A stretch of DNA of 41,633 bases from Nanobdellota archaeon (GTDB taxonomy: Archaea > Nanobdellota > Nanobdellia > Parvarchaeales > Parvarchaeaceae): positions 1-41,633 of the forward strand of contig JAJZLM010000003.1 in the NCBI GenBank assembly GCA_021850635.1, given 5' to 3'. Every line of letters begins with the position of its first letter. Position 1 is the stretch's first letter. Shown here piece by piece: positions 3,711-41,633 of this stretch. The notes below the pieces were generated by a model. The model was not told where the DNA came from and did not search any database. It worked only from the letters and a program-made list of their open reading frames with translations. The position numbers and the translations under genes were made by a program.

Positions 3711-3828
3711 GCAGGGGTAGCGAAGCCCGGCCCAACGCGCAGGACTTAAGATCTGTCAAGCTCTATTGATTAAGATTTGGAAATCCTGCGGCTTAGCGCC
3801 CTCGTGGGTTCAAATCCCACCCCCTGCA
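3711..3828 (+). tRNA. tRNA-Leu(TAA) with 32-nt intron at 37/38 (3751-3782)
   Basis: Acceptor GCAGGGG/CCCCTGC + A73; anticodon stem CAGGA/TCCTG; TAA at 3747-3749; long variable arm; TTCAAAT T-loop. Confidence 0.9.
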
Positions 3829-3882
3829 GTTCTGGTCCCAAAAAGTACAAGGTATTTAAGCTAGCCTATCCATTTCTTTTAA

Positions 3883-4175: not shown

Positions 4176-4278
4176 GCAGGGATAGCGAAGCCTGGCCAAA
4201 CGTGACAGACTCAAGAATTTCGCGTTCGGGTCATCTGTTCCCTTTGTGGGTTCGGGAGTTCAAATCTCCCTCCCTGCA
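4176..4278 (+). tRNA. tRNA-Leu(CAA) with 17-nt intron at 37/38 (4216-4232)
   Basis: Acceptor GCAGGGA/TCCCTGC + A73; anticodon stem ACAGA/TCTGT; CAA at 4212-4214; long variable arm. Confidence 0.9.
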
Positions 4279-4304: not shown

Positions 4305-6701
4305 TTAACTTACTTTAGATTCTCCGGAATTTTTAGTCACGGTTATCAAAGTATCTGCTATGTTCTTCATTATGTCTTCGTGCGTCACTATGACTATCTG
4401 TTTTATGTCGTTTATTCTGGTGATGCACGTTGAAAGGGCGTTTATGTCCTCTCTATCTAGTCCTGAAGTTGGCTCATCCATAATTAGCGATTCGTTCTTG
4501 TTTACGCCACCCAAAAGCGAAGCTATAGAAGAAAGCGCCATCCTATACGCCAGCGCTACCGAAGTTTTTTCGCCTCCAGACAAAGCCTTAGCGTCTAAAG
4601 TCTCGTTCCCAACCACTACCTTAACGTTATAGTCGTTATCTATGTCTATAGTGTATTCGCTATCGCTCCTTATCTCTGAGAATCTGGCCTGGAAAATAGA
4701 TTTGAACTCTCTTATAAATCTATTCCTTACGTACTCGCGTATATCCCGTATATCGCCTCTTAAGTTCTCCATCATAGACAAGAATTTCCCCCTTTTCTCA
4801 GATTCCTTTCTAAGTGCATCTCTCTTTTTTATTTTCAGCTTTATCTCATCTAATTTAGACTTATTATCGGATATTTCAGACTCACGGGACTCTATGTTTC
4901 CTTTTAAGCGAGACGAATCAGATTCCAATCTTTGTATCACAGAAGATAGTTCTCTATGTCTATTTTCGGAAGCGTCCATCTCCTGCTGGGAGAATCCTAA
5001 CTCGTCTAACTTACCTTTAGTAGATTCTACCTCTTCGTAAAGTTTATTTACTTCAGACTCTAACGAGTCCACTCTGACCTTTTTCATCTCTATCTCTTTG
5101 ATGTCATCTTCTATTTTATTTATAGCGTCTAATTCGTAATTCAAAGCCGACAGGTCTTTTGATAGCGCATTCTCTTCCGAGAGCAGTCTTTCGTATATCT
5201 TGTTCTTTTCTTCAGACAGTTTTCTTATATCATCAACACTTATTGCTGTTAATTCATTTTCCTTTGAAGAGACTCTTTTGGATATATCGTCTATTTTACC
5301 GTTCAGTATCCCTACCTCTTTATCGAGGTCTACCCTACTCTTTGAGGATTTCCCACGCTCAACCTCTGCGTATAATCCTTTTATTCTAGATTTTAGATCG
5401 AGTATCCTAGAATCATACTCTTTCTCTATGTGCCCCACATCTGTTATTTTGTTATTGCACACCGGACAAATCATGCTGCCGAGCGCAGAAGATTTTTCCT
5501 TTTCCAGCCATTTTATATATTCATTTAGCTGAGCTATCCTTCCACTTATTTCTTCTGCTGTGGTGAGAGTTTTTGCGACTTCAAGCCTTTCTTCAGCATC
5601 TTTGAGTTGCTTTTTAAGGTCGTCCTTTTCGTTTAAGAGCGCTGCAATCTCAGATTTTAGCCCGCTAACTTTAACAAGAATAGATCTCTCCAGAGCCTTC
5701 GCCTCAGACAATTCTTTATACGCATCTTTTTCAACCTGACGCTTCTGTTCCAGAGACATTTCTAAGTACTTTACTCTTTTTTTAATTTCAACTTTCCTAT
5801 TTTCATCTATCTTTGAGATCTCTACGCTCTTTTTCTCTATTTCTTTTTCCAGTGTAGATATGTTAGACCTAAGTTTTTCTATCCTTTCTGTCTTTTCGTT
5901 CATCTCGGCAGATAGTTTCGTGTGCTCGTTCTTCTTGTCACTGTAAAATTTGAATTCACTTTCTGCTTGCTTTAGTAGTACCTTATTGTTTTCCAGTTCG
6001 TTATTTATGCTGGTAAGTTCGCTTTTCGCTTTTTCATTGGCTTTTGTCAACTCATTTATCCTACTCTCTATCTTTATTAGATCAGATTCGTCTACGGCAA
6101 GAGCTTCTTCCAGTTTTTTGGCTTCTGCGTCATCCTTTAGTGAAGAGATCACATCTTTTAACATATCATATGTATCGATGTATCTGTTGAGTTGTAGCAA
6201 CTGGTCTATGTACTCTTGTTTAGACTGACCGCTATCGAATATAAGTTCTTTCAATTCATCCTGTTTTATGTACGTTATTGACTCGAACGTTTTGATCGGC
6301 GAATCGGATTCTATCTTCAGCGTCTTAAGTATGTAATCATTTAGGTCAGAAGCTCTATTCTGTAGATCCACAACGTGACCATCCTTCATTATAATATTGT
6401 CAGAATCGTCGTTTCTTACTGCATTTCCTATCTTTTTTAGTCCCCTTTTTATTATGTATTCTGATCCATTCTCCTCGAACTTTATCGAGATGTTACCGCT
6501 CGATGCTCCTCTGCGCAACAGCATCTTGCCTTCTTCCCTGCCTTCGCCTATCTTTCCGAACAGCGCGTATTCCAGCGCCATCAACATCGATGATTTTCCG
6601 CTGCCGGTGTTTCCAGTTATAATGTTAATCCCGTCGGTAAACTTAACAGTGCTGTTCCAATGGCTCCTTATGTTCTGCAAATCAATCTCTTTTATTATCA
6701 T
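4305..6701 (-). CDS. rad50: DNA double-strand break repair ATPase Rad50
   Basis: Walker A GNTGSGKS, coiled coils, central CPVC zinc hook, LSGGE signature, MDEPT, VTH; downstream of mre11; ATG 6701 preferred over TTG 6710. Confidence 0.95.
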   Translation of the reverse strand: MIIKEIDLQNIRSHWNSTVKFTDGINIITGNTGSGKSSMLMALEYALFGKIGEGREEGKMLLRRGASSGNISIKFEENGSEYIIKRGLKKIGNAVRNDDSDNIIMKDGHVVDLQNRASDLNDYILKTLKIESDSPIKTFESITYIKQDELKELIFDSGQSKQEYIDQLLQLNRYIDTYDMLKDVISSLKDDAEAKKLEEALAVDESDLIKIESRINELTKANEKAKSELTSINNELENNKVLLKQAESEFKFYSDKKNEHTKLSAEMNEKTERIEKLRSNISTLEKEIEKKSVEISKIDENRKVEIKKRVKYLEMSLEQKRQVEKDAYKELSEAKALERSILVKVSGLKSEIAALLNEKDDLKKQLKDAEERLEVAKTLTTAEEISGRIAQLNEYIKWLEKEKSSALGSMICPVCNNKITDVGHIEKEYDSRILDLKSRIKGLYAEVERGKSSKSRVDLDKEVGILNGKIDDISKRVSSKENELTAISVDDIRKLSEEKNKIYERLLSEENALSKDLSALNYELDAINKIEDDIKEIEMKKVRVDSLESEVNKLYEEVESTKGKLDELGFSQQEMDASENRHRELSSVIQRLESDSSRLKGNIESRESEISDNKSKLDEIKLKIKKRDALRKESEKRGKFLSMMENLRGDIRDIREYVRNRFIREFKSIFQARFSEIRSDSEYTIDIDNDYNVKVVVGNETLDAKALSGGEKTSVALAYRMALSSIASLLGGVNKNESLIMDEPTSGLDREDINALSTCITRINDIKQIVIVTHEDIMKNIADTLITVTKNSGESKVS

Positions 6702-7863
6702 ATTTGTCAAACCATTCTAATGATTTCTTTTTCATCTCTTCTGCGTTTGCACCGCTGTCTGTTGATTCTATAAGCAGCTTCGCAAGGGCTATCTGTTCGT
6801 CGTCGTATCCCCTCTGTTTTAGGAAATCCGTCTCTATCCTATGCATGTCTCCTTCGCTTACATCCACGGTTACATCATCGCTGTCCATAAGTTTTGAAGT
6901 GTTTATACTAGTATATGAATATCCGGCGTCATCTGCGGCTTTTTTTATGTCTATGATATTAAATTCGCTTCTCTTACCTAGAAGTTTTCCGCTTATCTTT
7001 ATAACTAAGATTTTTCCAGTGTTTTTTGTCAGCTTCGACAGTATATCTGTCTTAAGTGCTAGAGCATCCTTCCCGTCCGCAGAAAATACCAATATATCTT
7101 TATCGCGCGTGTTCAGTATCTTATATTCTATAGAAGATATCCCTCTATCGCTGTATTCCACTACGTAAAAGCCCCTGTTCGGGTTATCTATTATCTCCTT
7201 CTCATCGCAGTACTCCGTAGAGCCTGGATACTGTATTACACCTTTGTCGTACTTTATCCCGTCTTTATGTCCATGCCAGTGTCCCGCAGCGTAGTAATCG
7301 AAACCTTTCGGTAAGCTTTCCGTATCAAGGTCCTTGAATCTCTCTCCCAATGTGGAGATAGTGTGGTGGAATATGAATATCTTTATCCACGTATCAGGGT
7401 CCGCCTCTATGTGGAGCCTCTTGAATATGTAATTCTCTACTCTGCTTCTTTTTCCCTGTACGCCGCAGATGAACGCGTTGCGGTAGGTCTCTCCTTTTAG
7501 AATAAATTTGTCTTCCTCATTTTTTACGTACCTCTTGGAGTTAAGATTTACCAAGAGACCGTTCCTATCGAAAAGTTCCAGTATGCTATCCCTCTCCCCT
7601 ATACCCACGTCGTGTGAACCAGGCACTATGAAGATTTTTATGTCAGCTTCTTTTAACCTGTTAAGCTGATCAGTTACGAAAAGAAGCGCGTCTAAACTAG
7701 GGTTTCCTTCGTTGAACATGTCGCCTGCATGCACTATGAAATCGACTTTATCGTTTATGGCGAAATCTATCACCTGTCTGAACGAGTCTTGGATATCTGC
7801 GTTTCTAGTGTCATTCTTATACACAGCACCGATATGCGTGTCGCCGACATGTATGAATTTCAT
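6682..7863 (-). CDS. mre11: DNA double-strand break repair nuclease Mre11
   Basis: GDTHIG, AGDMF, PGSHD, GHWH and YPGS phosphoesterase motifs; adjacent to rad50. Confidence 0.93.
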   Translation of the reverse strand: MKFIHVGDTHIGAVYKNDTRNADIQDSFRQVIDFAINDKVDFIVHAGDMFNEGNPSLDALLFVTDQLNRLKEADIKIFIVPGSHDVGIGERDSILELFDRNGLLVNLNSKRYVKNEEDKFILKGETYRNAFICGVQGKRSRVENYIFKRLHIEADPDTWIKIFIFHHTISTLGERFKDLDTESLPKGFDYYAAGHWHGHKDGIKYDKGVIQYPGSTEYCDEKEIIDNPNRGFYVVEYSDRGISSIEYKILNTRDKDILVFSADGKDALALKTDILSKLTKNTGKILVIKISGKLLGKRSEFNIIDIKKAADDAGYSYTSINTSKLMDSDDVTVDVSEGDMHRIETDFLKQRGYDDEQIALAKLLIESTDSGANAEEMKKKSLEWFDKYDNKRD

Positions 7864-7946
7864 GAATACTCTTTGAGACCATTAAATTTAACTCTTTCAC
7901 AAATTGTATACAATAGGCTTATAACCTTCGGATAGGCTATGTAATT

Positions 7947-10851: not shown

Positions 10852-10925
10852 AAGTACCGCCTATGCAATGGTAAATGCTTATTTTTTACCACTTTTTGGA
10901 CTTTTTACATAAAAATTCACTGAAC

Positions 10926-10940
10926 GAAAGCTTTATATAT
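10926..10940 (+). promoter_or_regulatory. BRE-TATA promoter of the RNA polymerase operon
   Basis: GAAAGC-TTTATATA about 50 nt upstream of rpoH; same AAAGCTT(T)ATA motif at 34208 and 41315. Confidence 0.6.
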
Positions 10941-10989
10941 TCATATTATCAACTTTACTAATTGAAAAATCACTCATGAGGTTCCCTGC

Positions 10990-23635: not shown

Positions 23636-24081
23636 ACTGCGAGCTTTGTGGATTCACAGACGATAAATTCTATAGAGTAGAGATAGAGGGTGCAGTGATG
23701 ACGGTCTGCTCAAAATGTTCATCATTCGGCAAAATAATCAAAGAGGTAGAGGAACATGAAATAGAAAAGAAACCACAGAAATCATACGGATTCGTAGAGA
23801 GAAGCTTAAAGATGGATTACCTTGAGATACTTAATAATGCAATGAATGAGAAAAACATGACGGCAGAGAAGCTGGCAGAGGAAATAAAAGAGTCCCCATA
23901 CGAGATTAAAAAGATACTAAAAGGAAAGATAATGCCTACAGATGCAATAGCTAAAAAAATAGAGAGCGCTCTTAAGGTATCCATATATGAGGATATAGTC
24001 GGCACTTTCAAACCGACTAAGGAGTCCAACGAAGTTTCTATAGATTACATCGCTCAGATAAAACAAATGAAGCAGGGGTAG
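23632..24081 (+). CDS. mbf1: Archaeal multiprotein bridging factor aMBF1 (Zn ribbon + HTH)
   Basis: CELCG...IEGAVMTVCSKC followed by Cro-like HTH; its stop codon lies inside the tRNA-Leu gene. Confidence 0.9.
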   Translation: MNCELCGFTDDKFYRVEIEGAVMTVCSKCSSFGKIIKEVEEHEIEKKPQKSYGFVERSLKMDYLEILNNAMNEKNMTAEKLAEEIKESPYEIKKILKGKIMPTDAIAKKIESALKVSIYEDIVGTFKPTKESNEVSIDYIAQIKQMKQG

Positions 24082-24157
24082 CGAAGCCCGGTCCAACGTG
24101 TGAGGCTTAGGACCTCATGGCTTAGCGCCCTCGTGGGTTCAAATCCCACCCCCTGCA
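24072..24157 (+). tRNA. tRNA-Leu(TAG), no intron
   Basis: GCAGGGG/CCCCTGC + A73; TGAGG-CT-TAG-GA-CCTCA arm; long variable arm. Confidence 0.93.
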
Positions 24158-24172
24158 TTTATGCTCGCATTA

Positions 24173-24323
24173 AAGACGTTTTCTAAACTAGAGAGTCACC
24201 GCTCGTCATATCATCCGGTCGAATTAAGCTAGTCTTATCAAATGTGAGCGGGAAAACCCACACTCTTTAGAGGTGGGAGGATGTCACCCTAAGAACCGTG
24301 AGATAGTAGGTGCTTAGCGTTTT
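24173..24323 (+). ncRNA. Candidate structured RNA, 5S-rRNA-like, interrupted by a 49-bp mini-IS
   Basis: With 24239-24287 removed, about 102 nt fold by eye as a three-way junction and contain CTCGT..CCGG..GAATTAAGC; not confirmed with a covariance model. Confidence 0.35.
24239..24287 (+). mobile_element. 49-bp single-hairpin IS200/IS605 derivative, copy 1
   Basis: CAAATGTGAGCGGGAAAACCCACACTCTTTAGAGGTGGGAGGATGTCAC; identical to 34143-34191(-); first 40 nt identical to the IS left end at 41350; preceded by TTAT; no target duplication. Confidence 0.9.
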
Positions 24324-33237: not shown

Positions 33238-34146
33238 ATGGTAACCGCTCTAATTTCGTCAAAGGAACTGAAAAGCGATGCGCTCAACTCCATAATCTCA
33301 AAGAAACTAGACAATATCAACGGAGTCCAGATAGCTCTGGATAAAAAAGGAGGGGTAATAGTGTATTCTTTGGATTATCCCACGTCGGTCAACGCGATGA
33401 TGCGTGCACTGTCCATAGCAGACGACGCAATATTCGTGATAAACGATGAGATCACCGCTATAGACGCAGAATTGGCCCTCGCCGTCGAAAACTCCGATAT
33501 AGATACAGTGATTCCGGTAAAATTAGAGTATTCAGATGAGAGCAGCTTTTCCAAATTGTTTGGAAACTACAAAGTAGGTAGGTCTAAGATCATCACAATG
33601 AAAGAAGCGGCGGAACTGCCTAAGATTGAGAGACGAAGTCCTGATTTTTCTTATGTATCTGTAGACAAGCATTTCATAGTCAAGGGGATAGGCAGCGTCA
33701 TAATAGGGTTCAACCTCGGCGGGACAGTAAAGAAAGGGGATAAGCTGCATCTTCTTCCAACATTAAAAGACGTTTCTATAAAGAGTATACAGATAATGGA
33801 TGTGGACTCCCAAACAGCAAGCAGCGGCCAGCACGTGGGGTTAGCGTTAAACAATATAAATGGGGAGGACCTTTCTGAGAACTACGCAGTGTCATCTATA
33901 GGCTCTGTGGCTGAAAAGTTCAGCTGCAAGTTTGACAAGTCAAAATTCTATAGTATAGAGACTTTAGCCGATAGGGACCTCGGGTGTGCGTTGCTCGGAA
34001 AGAATTTCAGCGTTTCCATAGAAGAAGCAGACACTTCTATAAGATTCAATAGACCTGTGCCTAAAATCGGCGGTAAACATCTTATAATGGACGCGAGTTT
34101 ATCAGTAGGCAAGAACAGAGTAGTAGGCAGCTTCGAATTCGCGTGA
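33238..34146 (+). CDS. SelB/EF-Tu-like protein with degenerate G domain (aSelBL-like)
   Basis: Domain II VDKHFIVKGIGSVIIG..GTVKKGD...IKSIQIMD...GQHVGLAL; no P-loop in the N-terminal part. Confidence 0.8.
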   Translation: MVTALISSKELKSDALNSIISKKLDNINGVQIALDKKGGVIVYSLDYPTSVNAMMRALSIADDAIFVINDEITAIDAELALAVENSDIDTVIPVKLEYSDESSFSKLFGNYKVGRSKIITMKEAAELPKIERRSPDFSYVSVDKHFIVKGIGSVIIGFNLGGTVKKGDKLHLLPTLKDVSIKSIQIMDVDSQTASSGQHVGLALNNINGEDLSENYAVSSIGSVAEKFSCKFDKSKFYSIETLADRDLGCALLGKNFSVSIEEADTSIRFNRPVPKIGGKHLIMDASLSVGKNRVVGSFEFA

Positions 34147-34191
34147 CATCCTCCCACCTCTAAAGAGTGTGGGTTTTCCCGCTCACATTTG
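34143..34191 (-). mobile_element. 49-bp single-hairpin IS200/IS605 derivative, copy 2
   Basis: Exact reverse complement of 24239-24287; target TTAT (ATAA at 34192-34195); supplies the TGA stop of the upstream gene. Confidence 0.9.
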
Positions 34192-34207
34192 ATAAGAATG
34201 CGCGCAC

Positions 34208-34221
34208 AAAAGCTTTATATA
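34208..34221 (+). promoter_or_regulatory. BRE-TATA promoter
   Basis: AAAAGC-TTTATATA about 40 nt upstream of the 34261 ORF. Confidence 0.55.
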
Positions 34222-34260
34222 TACCTAATAATCATTATATGGTAGTAAAACTATAATAAT

Positions 34261-35118
34261 ATGGCAGGAAACGGAACAAATACGGGTCAAAGCGGTTCGA
34301 AGGCTAATAAGCTTAGTTTGGAGCAGGTACTAGGCGCCAGCAATTTCGATGCATATAAACAGATAGCGACGGTCATAGACAGCTACATGCAGACGAAGGA
34401 TCATCCAGGTTTCAGCGTGGTCAACATGGGCAATTATATGTATAACGCCTTGTTGACTATCTCAAAGGAAGTGACGGACCCAGCCCTAGCAGCGATGCTC
34501 GAGATGAAGAGGCACGCGCTTGAAGAATCTATAAAATACAAGACTATCACCAAAGAATCCCTTGACGGGATAGCGAACTATCTTAAGGACTTTCTGCCAC
34601 CTTATCTAGATAAAATAAAAGACAGTATCGGAGCGGACAATCATAAGAGTATGGCTATGGGTATAATGTTGAATATAGGCAAGTATCCCGATGAGTTCAA
34701 GAAGATATCATCGGTTAAAGGAGGAGCCAAGCCTGCTCAGCTTTCGCTTATATTAGATGAATTAAACAACGATTTGAACAACAATGATACTTCAAAAATC
34801 GCATCTTATTACAAGAAATTATCGTCTCCTGAAGTGGAAAAAGCATATGTAAAGTTAGGAATGACTCCGGACAATGCAAAAAAAGCGTTTGTGGACGGCA
34901 ATAAATGCTACGCTGATCTGGTAAATTCCTTGAGCGAAAATGCAAAGATAGAACACATGACCTACGTGCAAAAGATACTTATGAGTGAAATATACAGACA
35001 GAGCAAGAACATAGACGGAGATGCGCTAAAACAAGCGCTCGAGAGCTCTGACCCAGTGAACTACCTGAATATGTTGCCTTTAGCTGTAAAACAAGGCAGC
35101 AACTATTTGGGTGTCTAG
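34261..35118 (+). CDS. Hypothetical soluble, probably all-alpha protein
   Basis: 285 aa ORF with its own promoter; no recognisable motif. Confidence 0.75.
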   Translation: MAGNGTNTGQSGSKANKLSLEQVLGASNFDAYKQIATVIDSYMQTKDHPGFSVVNMGNYMYNALLTISKEVTDPALAAMLEMKRHALEESIKYKTITKESLDGIANYLKDFLPPYLDKIKDSIGADNHKSMAMGIMLNIGKYPDEFKKISSVKGGAKPAQLSLILDELNNDLNNNDTSKIASYYKKLSSPEVEKAYVKLGMTPDNAKKAFVDGNKCYADLVNSLSENAKIEHMTYVQKILMSEIYRQSKNIDGDALKQALESSDPVNYLNMLPLAVKQGSNYLGV

Positions 35119-41306: not shown

Positions 41307-41349
41307 CTTGCCGCAAAGCTTATAATAAACCTAAAGCATAACGGTTTAT

Positions 41350-41633
41350 CAAATGTGAGCGGGAAAACCCACACTCTTTAGAGGTGGGATGAAAGCGAAC
41401 TCAAAAATGGAAAACATAAATAACAGAAGAGGTAAAATAACAATATGCTGACGGCATACAAATTCAGGTTGTACCCAAATGAAAAACAGCAGAGCCTCTT
41501 CTCGAAATACTTCGGCTGCAGCAGGGTAGTGTGGAACAAAGCGTTAGAGTTAAAGGAAGAGTATTACAAAGAGCACAAGGACGACAAGACAAAGAAGGGA
41601 TTGAACTACTATGATACCGCAAGATTTTTAAGG
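41350..41633 (+). mobile_element. IS200/IS605-family (IS1341-like) element, left end; continues past window
   Basis: TTAT target, AAAA guide, imperfect hairpin CCCACACTCTTTAGAGGTGGG, then tnpB; no room for tnpA upstream of tnpB. Confidence 0.88.
41445..41633 (+). CDS. tnpB: TnpB RNA-guided endonuclease (N-terminus, truncated by window)
   Basis: MLTAYKFRLYPNEKQQSLFSKYFGCSRVVWNKAL, the HTH_OrfB_IS605 pattern. Confidence 0.92.
   Translation, partial: MLTAYKFRLYPNEKQQSLFSKYFGCSRVVWNKALELKEEYYKEHKDDKTKKGLNYYDTARFLR

Follow-up and report, generated by a model that had tools for sequence, protein, structure and literature searches.

The 41,633-nt contig JAJZLM010000003.1 of a Nanobdellota archaeon (the window in what follows) carries a gene for a SelB-like protein whose stop codon is supplied by the end of a mobile element. 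This element, at 34143–34191, is a 49-bp terminal-only relic of an approximately 1.4-kb, tnpB-only member of the IS200/IS605 insertion sequence (IS) family that lacks tnpA. The exchange of one stop codon for another is probably a by-product of the way IS608-like ends are built, with selection then removing the insertions that do harm; targeting of stop codons is not supported. The window is the entire contig C7 of a 569-kb genome (28 contigs, 41% GC, about 90% complete), here called G000, and metagenome runs that contain window sequence carry mine-drainage and mine-tailings labels.

The host gene ends in GAA TTC GCG TGA, where GTGA (34143–34146) is the reverse complement of the element terminus TCAC, as the initial annotation had pointed out. 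The TGA (34144–34146) and the wobble G of the last codon (34143) are element DNA. Read on the minus strand, target and relic consist of TTAT followed directly by CAAATG..., with GGATGTCAC at the other extremity, and the relic is composed of CAAATGTGAGCGGGAAAA, a hairpin, and AGGATGTCAC, the latter being the last 10 nt of the right end of the IS. The 40-nt core of the relic is present in three copies in the window and in none of 100 shuffles, and the relic region has inverted matches of 60 nt to 24233–24292 and of 47 nt to 41346–41392. Five such 49-mers are present in G000, four identical and one with a single mismatch; the second copy in the window (24239–24287) lies 81 nt past a tRNA-Leu gene and at no gene end. 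The palindrome inside the relic has a DNA fold of -8.3 kcal/mol with a modest z-score of -1.8. The relic is of non-coding size, has no inverted repeats and no target duplication, and possesses a near-terminal palindrome and IS605-type termini, which are the features of a terminal-only palindrome-associated transposable element (PATE) as defined by Dyall-Smith et al. in 2011 (PMC3119063).

Logan contigs of four metagenome runs were aligned to window positions 33800–34500, and one contig that joins the two flanks directly was obtained. This contig (run X5, 2647 bp, depth 12.3) covers 33800–34142 and resumes at 34192–34500; it is without exactly 49 bases (beginning with GT and ending with TG), and its sole other difference from the window is a C>T change at 33968, i.e., one single-nucleotide polymorphism (SNP) over about 650 bases. 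The run comes from another study than the probable source. Both junctions of the filled allele are spanned by contigs of run X4 (records 2 and 8). The empty allele reads GAATTCGC joined to ATAAGAATG, i.e., GC followed by ATAA with a single TTAT retained, so the earlier suggestion that removal of the 49 bp would restore GCATAA, with the same Ala and a stop, is matched by a natural sequence. Scanning metagenome contigs for exact matches to the 29 nt on the left of the junction revealed no empty alleles. Because the empty-site strain differs by only one SNP in about 650 bases, the relic is young rather than old. The TTAT at 34192–34195 is host DNA because, were it part of the element, the empty gene would lack a stop. 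The empty allele, together with the copies at unrelated sites, rules out that the structure is a native regulatory hairpin instead of an insertion.

Orthologs of the host gene were found in 27 of the 32 other genomes of the genus. The position of the stop codon (...G-x5-stop) is the same in 24 of these 27, and the remaining three end within -1 to +2 codons of it; the stops used are TAA (20), TAG (4), and TGA (3). The closest ortholog (L027, 64% identity) ends in FEFS-TAG, and the promoter-like motif that follows the gene in the window (AAAGCTTTATATA) recurs there 11 nt after the stop. The initial annotation had asked for confirmation of GCATAA at this locus in relatives. The gene-end position is kept, as just described, but the exact GCATAA was found in none of them, because identity is no higher than 64% even for the nearest ortholog. 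In G000, TGA is an ordinary stop that terminates 278 of 616 crude open reading frame (ORF) calls.

The structure of the two alleles suggests how the exchange may have come about. The element would insert as a single strand 3' of TTAT, with TCAC as its terminus and with no duplication. At this locus, the TTAT would have been met on the strand opposite the host gene, where it corresponds to the TAA and the wobble position before it (GCA TAA). In the filled allele, the reading frame runs into the right end, with GC continued by G TGA; Ala is kept, TGA stands in place of TAA, and the protein is unchanged, as is the promoter-like motif downstream. The swap would be automatic, since on the opposite strand a T-T-A-N target gives N-TAA and a T-C-A-N right end gives N-TGA, with the register preserved. 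Selection would purge insertions in the 89% of the genome that is coding, and among the remaining TTAT sites, about 1/13 to 1/25 overlap an xxA-TAA stop. The accompanying A>G change of the wobble base, purine to purine, is synonymous in all codon boxes of the standard code except ATA>ATG, and this exception is present in one relative (L245). The claim that insertion of a TTAT/TCAC element at an xxA-TAA gene end changes a wobble base and turns TAA into TGA holds for the empty and filled alleles and again for an ExoIII-like gene and a P-type ATPase gene described below. In IS608, the pair TTAC/TCAA has the same register, which is explained by guide pairing inside the element (PMC3201880). Because the swap property is inherent in the guide-pairing constraints of the family, it would need no special selection.

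The parent element is represented in the window by one left end, that of a full-length copy truncated by the contig edge. At 41346, TTAT is followed directly by CAAATGTGAGCGGGAAAACCCACACTCTTTAGAGGTGGGATGAAAGCG... and, 95 nt later, by an ORF start; the first 63 residues of this tnpB ORF (41445–41633) match HTH_OrfB_IS605 (Pfam, 2.2e-21), and contig C27 begins with the continuation of the copy. All 13 left-end junctions in G000 are preceded by TTAT. The G000 right ends (n = 10, several at contig edges) read GCGGAAGCCCAC, A or G, CTCTTTAGAGGTGGG, A or G, and GGATGTCAC, after which the sequences diverge. A TnpB Zn-ribbon/TNB domain (84 bits) lies just inside a right end on contig C25. One relative contains a complete copy of 1398 bp, and derivatives of 323 and 347 bp are also found in relatives. 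A search for left ends of a TCAG subfamily by means of a second hairpin gave three usable pairs in addition to artefacts.

Both ends of the IS carry the imperfect palindrome CCCAC-A-CTCT-TT-AGAG-GTGGG, and there is no inverted repeat between the termini CAAATG... and ...GTCAC. From the TTAT cut on the 5' side to the hairpin foot the distance is 18 nt, and cleavage after TCAC falls 10 nt beyond the foot on its 3' side. The final base of the right end covaries with position 4 of the 4-mer that precedes the hairpin, giving TCAC/GAAG, TCAG/GAAC, and TCAA/GAAT (rows of the genus set, e.g., L081, L066, and G000 copies), and on the left side TTAT is paired with an AAAA 4-mer. The right guide of IS608 is likewise GAAT. 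Judged from the aligned ends, the covariation agrees with the IS608 guide rule and, as a natural covariation, supports guide pairing of the IS608 type in archaeal tnpB-only elements; under the same rule, the AAAA of the relic (34174–34177) would pair with the target TTAT. IS608 of Helicobacter pylori is cut about 19 nt away from the hairpin foot on the 5' side and 10 nt away on the 3' side, and a 4-nt guide sits 5' of each foot (PMC3201880). Subterminal palindromes, the absence of inverted repeats, insertion 3' of a tetranucleotide, the absence of a duplication, guide covariation, and TnpB together place the element in the IS200/IS605 family. No match to the TnpA Y1 (HUH) transposase (PF01797) was found in G000, which is about 90% complete, and within the genus PF01797 occurs in only two of 33 genomes. 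This makes the element a non-autonomous tnpB-only (IS1341-like) member, the lack of TnpA lowering its autonomy and not its family membership.

Many G000 contigs break within IS copies (the 3' ends of C4, C7, C13, C23, and C25 and the 5' ends of C12, C17, C20, C25, C27, and C28), so counts in G000 may differ from the true copy number and left flanks are not assigned to right flanks. The element family is very abundant in the communities of runs X4–X7, since at 34136–34207 the summed contig depth, which is not a copy number, is hundreds-fold that of the flanks (about 5,000–7,900 versus 8–13 in X4). The motif TTTANNNGTGGGAGGATGTCAC is a very widely shared IS605-type right end. It was found at no fewer than 120 loci (L147–L266) in GTDB species genomes, and the record titles among the matches listed include Micrarchaeota, Thermoplasmata, Nanoarchaeota, Marsarchaeota, Bathyarchaeota, Haloquadratum, a cyanobacterium, and others.

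The initial annotation had further proposed that the TTAT/TCAC pair could be selected as a neutral landing pad, with stop codons as targets. Stop replacement was compared with a null derived from G000, where genes were called as the longest non-overlapping ORFs of at least 70 aa; this gave 616 genes that cover 89% of the genome, 99 of which end in ATAA. The two strands together contain 10,935 TTAT sites (9,120 in genes, 1,719 intergenic, and 96 stop-replacing), so that stop-replacing sites make up 0.9% of all sites and 5.3% (96/1,815) of the non-coding plus stop-replacing sites. The latter share served as null, on the assumption of equal tolerance at all sites of this class, and it depends on the gene cut-off (7.5% at 50 aa, 5.3% at 70 aa, 4.1% at 100 aa, and 2.5% at 150 aa). 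Right ends with less than 300 nt of flank were excluded from the counts, and at least one pair of flanks (L065/L082) looks orthologous.

In G000, the element end replaces a stop in frame at 2 of 10 right ends, or 2 of 5 when only the mini-elements are considered. Across the 33 genomes of the genus, 17 of which have the motif, this holds for 5 of 64 unique ends, scored where a host ORF of 100 codons or more terminates in the element TGA, with 3.4 expected and 3–5 observed (P(≥5) = 0.25, P(≥3) = 0.66). None of six unique ends (seven loci) in metagenome contigs replaces a stop, and in the GTDB species genomes, 9 of 116 usable ends among the matches listed (at least 120 loci) do so in frame. In this last set, long ORFs run into the end in the other two frames in 7 and 4 cases, which is a shadow-ORF background of like size. 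Pooling gives 14/181 (7.7%), with P = 0.016, 0.10, and 0.50 at nulls of 4.1%, 5.3%, and 7.5%, respectively. The data leave room for a two-fold excess at most and are also consistent with no excess, and there is no concentration beyond motif frequency plus selection such as a site-specific safe harbor would produce. Selection of the pair as a landing pad is thus not borne out by 14/181 against a null of 4.1–7.5%, nor does enrichment at stops appear in the genus set or in the metagenome contigs. The remark in the initial annotation that a single example may reflect survivor bias is the better reading; the counts are about those of chance plus selection.

Several observations weigh against the view that the stop swap is a mere by-product. 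The rate in G000 considered by itself is high (2/5 mini-elements, P = 0.025; P = 0.08–0.10 for all ends, 2/9 right ends giving P = 0.08), and the pooled count exceeds the 4.1% null that results from genes of at least 100 aa (P = 0.016). The null itself comes from crude ORF calls of one genome, applied to other genomes, and related genomes are not independent. In addition, short relics appear to be enriched at stops (5/22–24), a post hoc and fragile lead that is taken up below.

Three of the five genus cases concern genes with a family match. Besides the SelB-like gene, these are an ExoIII-like gene on contig C6 of G000 (262 aa, Exo_endo_phos 7.8e-30), the stop of which also derives from a 49-mer, and a P-type ATPase gene of genome G019 (E1-E2_ATPase 9.3e-51); in both, ATAA is found on the far side of the element. 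The other two are a 142-aa ORF without a family and an ORF that is probably spurious and resembles an antisense shadow. The ExoIII-like protein (C6:3026–3814; L014/L117) has a tail, NSLTKGP, by which it extends about seven residues further than 26 of 29 genus orthologs; these end 4–6 codons past the anchor, near ...VEID. This tail is older than the insertion only if its stop was the ATAA on the far side of the element.

One alternative is that insertion is unaimed and that relics serving as stops outlive the others, such that old, short relics are truly enriched at stops. Imprecise deletion of such a relic would break the stop or the next promoter, while a streamlined genome would shed its intergenic relics, and the relic in the window has the stop on one side and, about 15 nt away on the other, a promoter-like motif. 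Short relics with the left-end motif, as found by a regular expression, are at stops in 5 of 24 cases versus 9 of 150 for the rest (Fisher P = 0.03), and removal of three evident false positives and addition by eye of a variant from G019 gives 5/22 (P about 0.005 at p = 0.053). This subgroup was defined post hoc, however, and a split by upstream ORF shows no difference between short and long elements (3/32 versus 5/54). A split by an omega-RNA scaffold motif gives 11/124 versus 2/22, but that motif is not conserved and the classifier fails across subfamilies. The window relic, moreover, is young. We consider differential persistence unlikely, with the short relics as a lead. It is also quite unlikely that stop mimicry, as a family-wide trait built into IS608-type ends, has real consequences in gene-dense genomes such that elements, chiefly 49–52-bp relics, accumulate or persist at gene ends, become the stop, and are held there by selection on the host gene.

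Finally, an adaptive safe harbor, in which the TTAT/TCAC pair is selected for, or insertion is aimed at, xxA-TAA ends in gene-dense genomes, is highly improbable: the nearly always synonymous wobble change, the two of ten right ends in G000, and a pooled rate slightly over the middle null speak for it, but there is no enrichment in the genus or in the metagenome contigs, the in-frame count barely differs from the other two frames, the same pattern in IS608 is explained by guide pairing (PMC3201880), and most right ends lie elsewhere, 26 of 64 in the genus being just upstream of gene starts.

The position of right ends before genes is a side observation. A co-oriented ORF of 80 aa or more begins 0–42 nt past the right end in the 26 of 64 genus cases just mentioned and in 40 of 116 GTDB cases among the matches listed. 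The same procedure applied to non-coding TTAT sites of G000 gives 352/1,710 (20.6%; P = 2e-4 for the genus set). Examples are C28:111, C23:18254(-), C12:99, L093, L090, L101, and L094, and in three cases the start codon directly adjoins TCAC. This two-fold excess could reflect insertion at promoters or 5' ends, or tnpB read-through, and it may be more interesting than the stop-codon cases.

The origin of the 49-mer can be explained in two ways, between which we see the balance as even. In the first, a full IS was inserted at the site and subsequently lost its core through recombination between the 22-bp hairpin repeats; in the second, the 49-mer itself transposed. The 22-mer CCCACACTCTTTAGAGGTGGGA is common to the two ends of the IS; in the 49-mer, the sequence 5' of this 22-mer is exactly that of the left end, and the sequence 3' of it is exactly that of the right end. 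Other deletion junctions are known, in the G019 variant and in the 323- and 347-bp derivatives. The relic retains only the left-type guide AAAA and is without the GAAG that should pair with TCAC, and in IS608, stable complexes no longer formed once the right guide was lost (PMC3201880). Deletion of the core through repeats is also documented in Haloquadratum walsbyi, where PATEs of 52 bp (HqIRS46, ISHwa23 derivatives) have IS1341-type termini fused by deletion between 19–22-bp direct repeats (PMC3119063). Against a scar, two events would be needed in the short time that separates the filled and empty strains, and no contig with a full-length copy at 34142/34192 was seen among the contigs of the four runs. 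The six strain-specific insertions in Haloquadratum are all terminal-only, and their mobility was suspected by the authors (PMC3119063). Furthermore, all five G000 relics are of one sequence type, whereas the full copies vary (ACTC/GCTC, GGTGGG/GATGGG).

Integrases that use tRNA genes and Tn7, which inserts downstream of glmS, are known cases in which inserted DNA rebuilds or spares the end of the target gene. The present case may be likened to these in concept, in that the product of the target gene is left intact; they differ in using long specific sites recognized by dedicated proteins, whereas here four bases are mimicked and most copies lie off gene ends. The closest likeness in anatomy is to IS608, with its single-strand "peel and paste" organization, subterminal palindromes, lack of inverted repeats and duplication, and kept tetranucleotide (PMC3201880), although IS608 uses TTAC/TCAA, the element described here uses TTAT/TCAC, and tnpA was not found in G000. 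The 49-mer matches the Haloquadratum PATEs point by point (non-coding, fused termini, one palindrome, and strain-specific insertion), the host here being a tiny acid-mine DPANN-type archaeon; the main-text passages considered on those PATEs make no mention of stop-codon replacement (PMC3119063). IStrons combine an IS605-like element with a group I intron so that insertion is harmless to host genes (PMC4227781), but they rely on RNA splicing, whereas here DNA mimics a stop and there is no ribozyme. Full-text literature searches, which covered main texts, found no description of stop-codon replacement by IS605-type ends, and neither did a term search of a genome-wide target study of IS608 and ISDra2 (PMC5027513).

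The element and its relic are thus of known kinds, and the stop swap is a small new observation on a known system, not a new system. With both the filled and the empty allele known from near-identical strains, it is a clean natural case of an element end that has become a host stop at no apparent cost to the protein, and it illustrates how relics of the IS605 type can persist in a 0.57-Mb, 89% coding genome. For annotation, it means that gene ends in such genomes may be element DNA and that 49-bp relics are marks of past IS activity. The view of target choice by IS605-type elements is unchanged.

Table 1. Features of the window that bear on the stop-replacing relic (window coordinates)
Feature	Position	Strand	Remarks
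Host gene	33238..34146	+	302 aa, SelB/EF-Tu-like, degenerate N-terminal part; from ORF list and translation
Terminal-only element (PATE), 49 bp	34143..34191	-	Right end at 34143, left end at 34191
Subterminal imperfect palindrome	34153..34173	-	Also in both ends of the full IS as a 22-bp direct repeat
AAAA 4-mer directly 5' of hairpin foot, putative left-end-type guide	34174..34177	- (element top strand)	Position read from sequence
Target tetranucleotide TTAT (ATAA on +)	34192..34195	-	Former wobble A and TAA stop of host gene
Promoter-like AAAAGCTTTATATATAC (TFB recognition element (BRE)/TATA-like) of downstream gene	34207..34223	+	Read from sequence
Downstream gene	34261..35118	+	285 aa, no family match
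Second identical 49-bp copy	24239..24287	+	Intergenic, TTAT at 24235-24238
Left end of full-length IS copy running off contig	41350..41633	+	TTAT at 41346-41349; tnpB from 41445

The product of the host gene matches Pfam GTP_EFTU_D2 (EF-Tu domain 2) with 1.3e-07, and its best NCBIfam match is selB (1.2e-15). As the selB score is far under the cut-off (57 versus 242 bits), "SelB-like" seems a fair label for the gene and no more. The promoter-like motif of the downstream gene is undisturbed by the insertion, about 15 nt past ATAA, and recurs at 10924–10948 (repeat family D5); its role as a promoter is putative. The hairpin followed by TTTT on the gene strand was considered as a terminator and dropped, since a consensus scan of 33900–34400 gave no terminator-like site and only four T follow the stem. 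Elsewhere in the window, positions 3711–3840 and 4176–4219 show 77–92% identity to the two halves of the tRNA-Leu gene (24072–24157; repeat families D1 and D2). ARAGORN called no tRNA at either location, and the segment at 3711–3840, in which about 35 nt separate the halves, could represent a tRNA gene with an intron.

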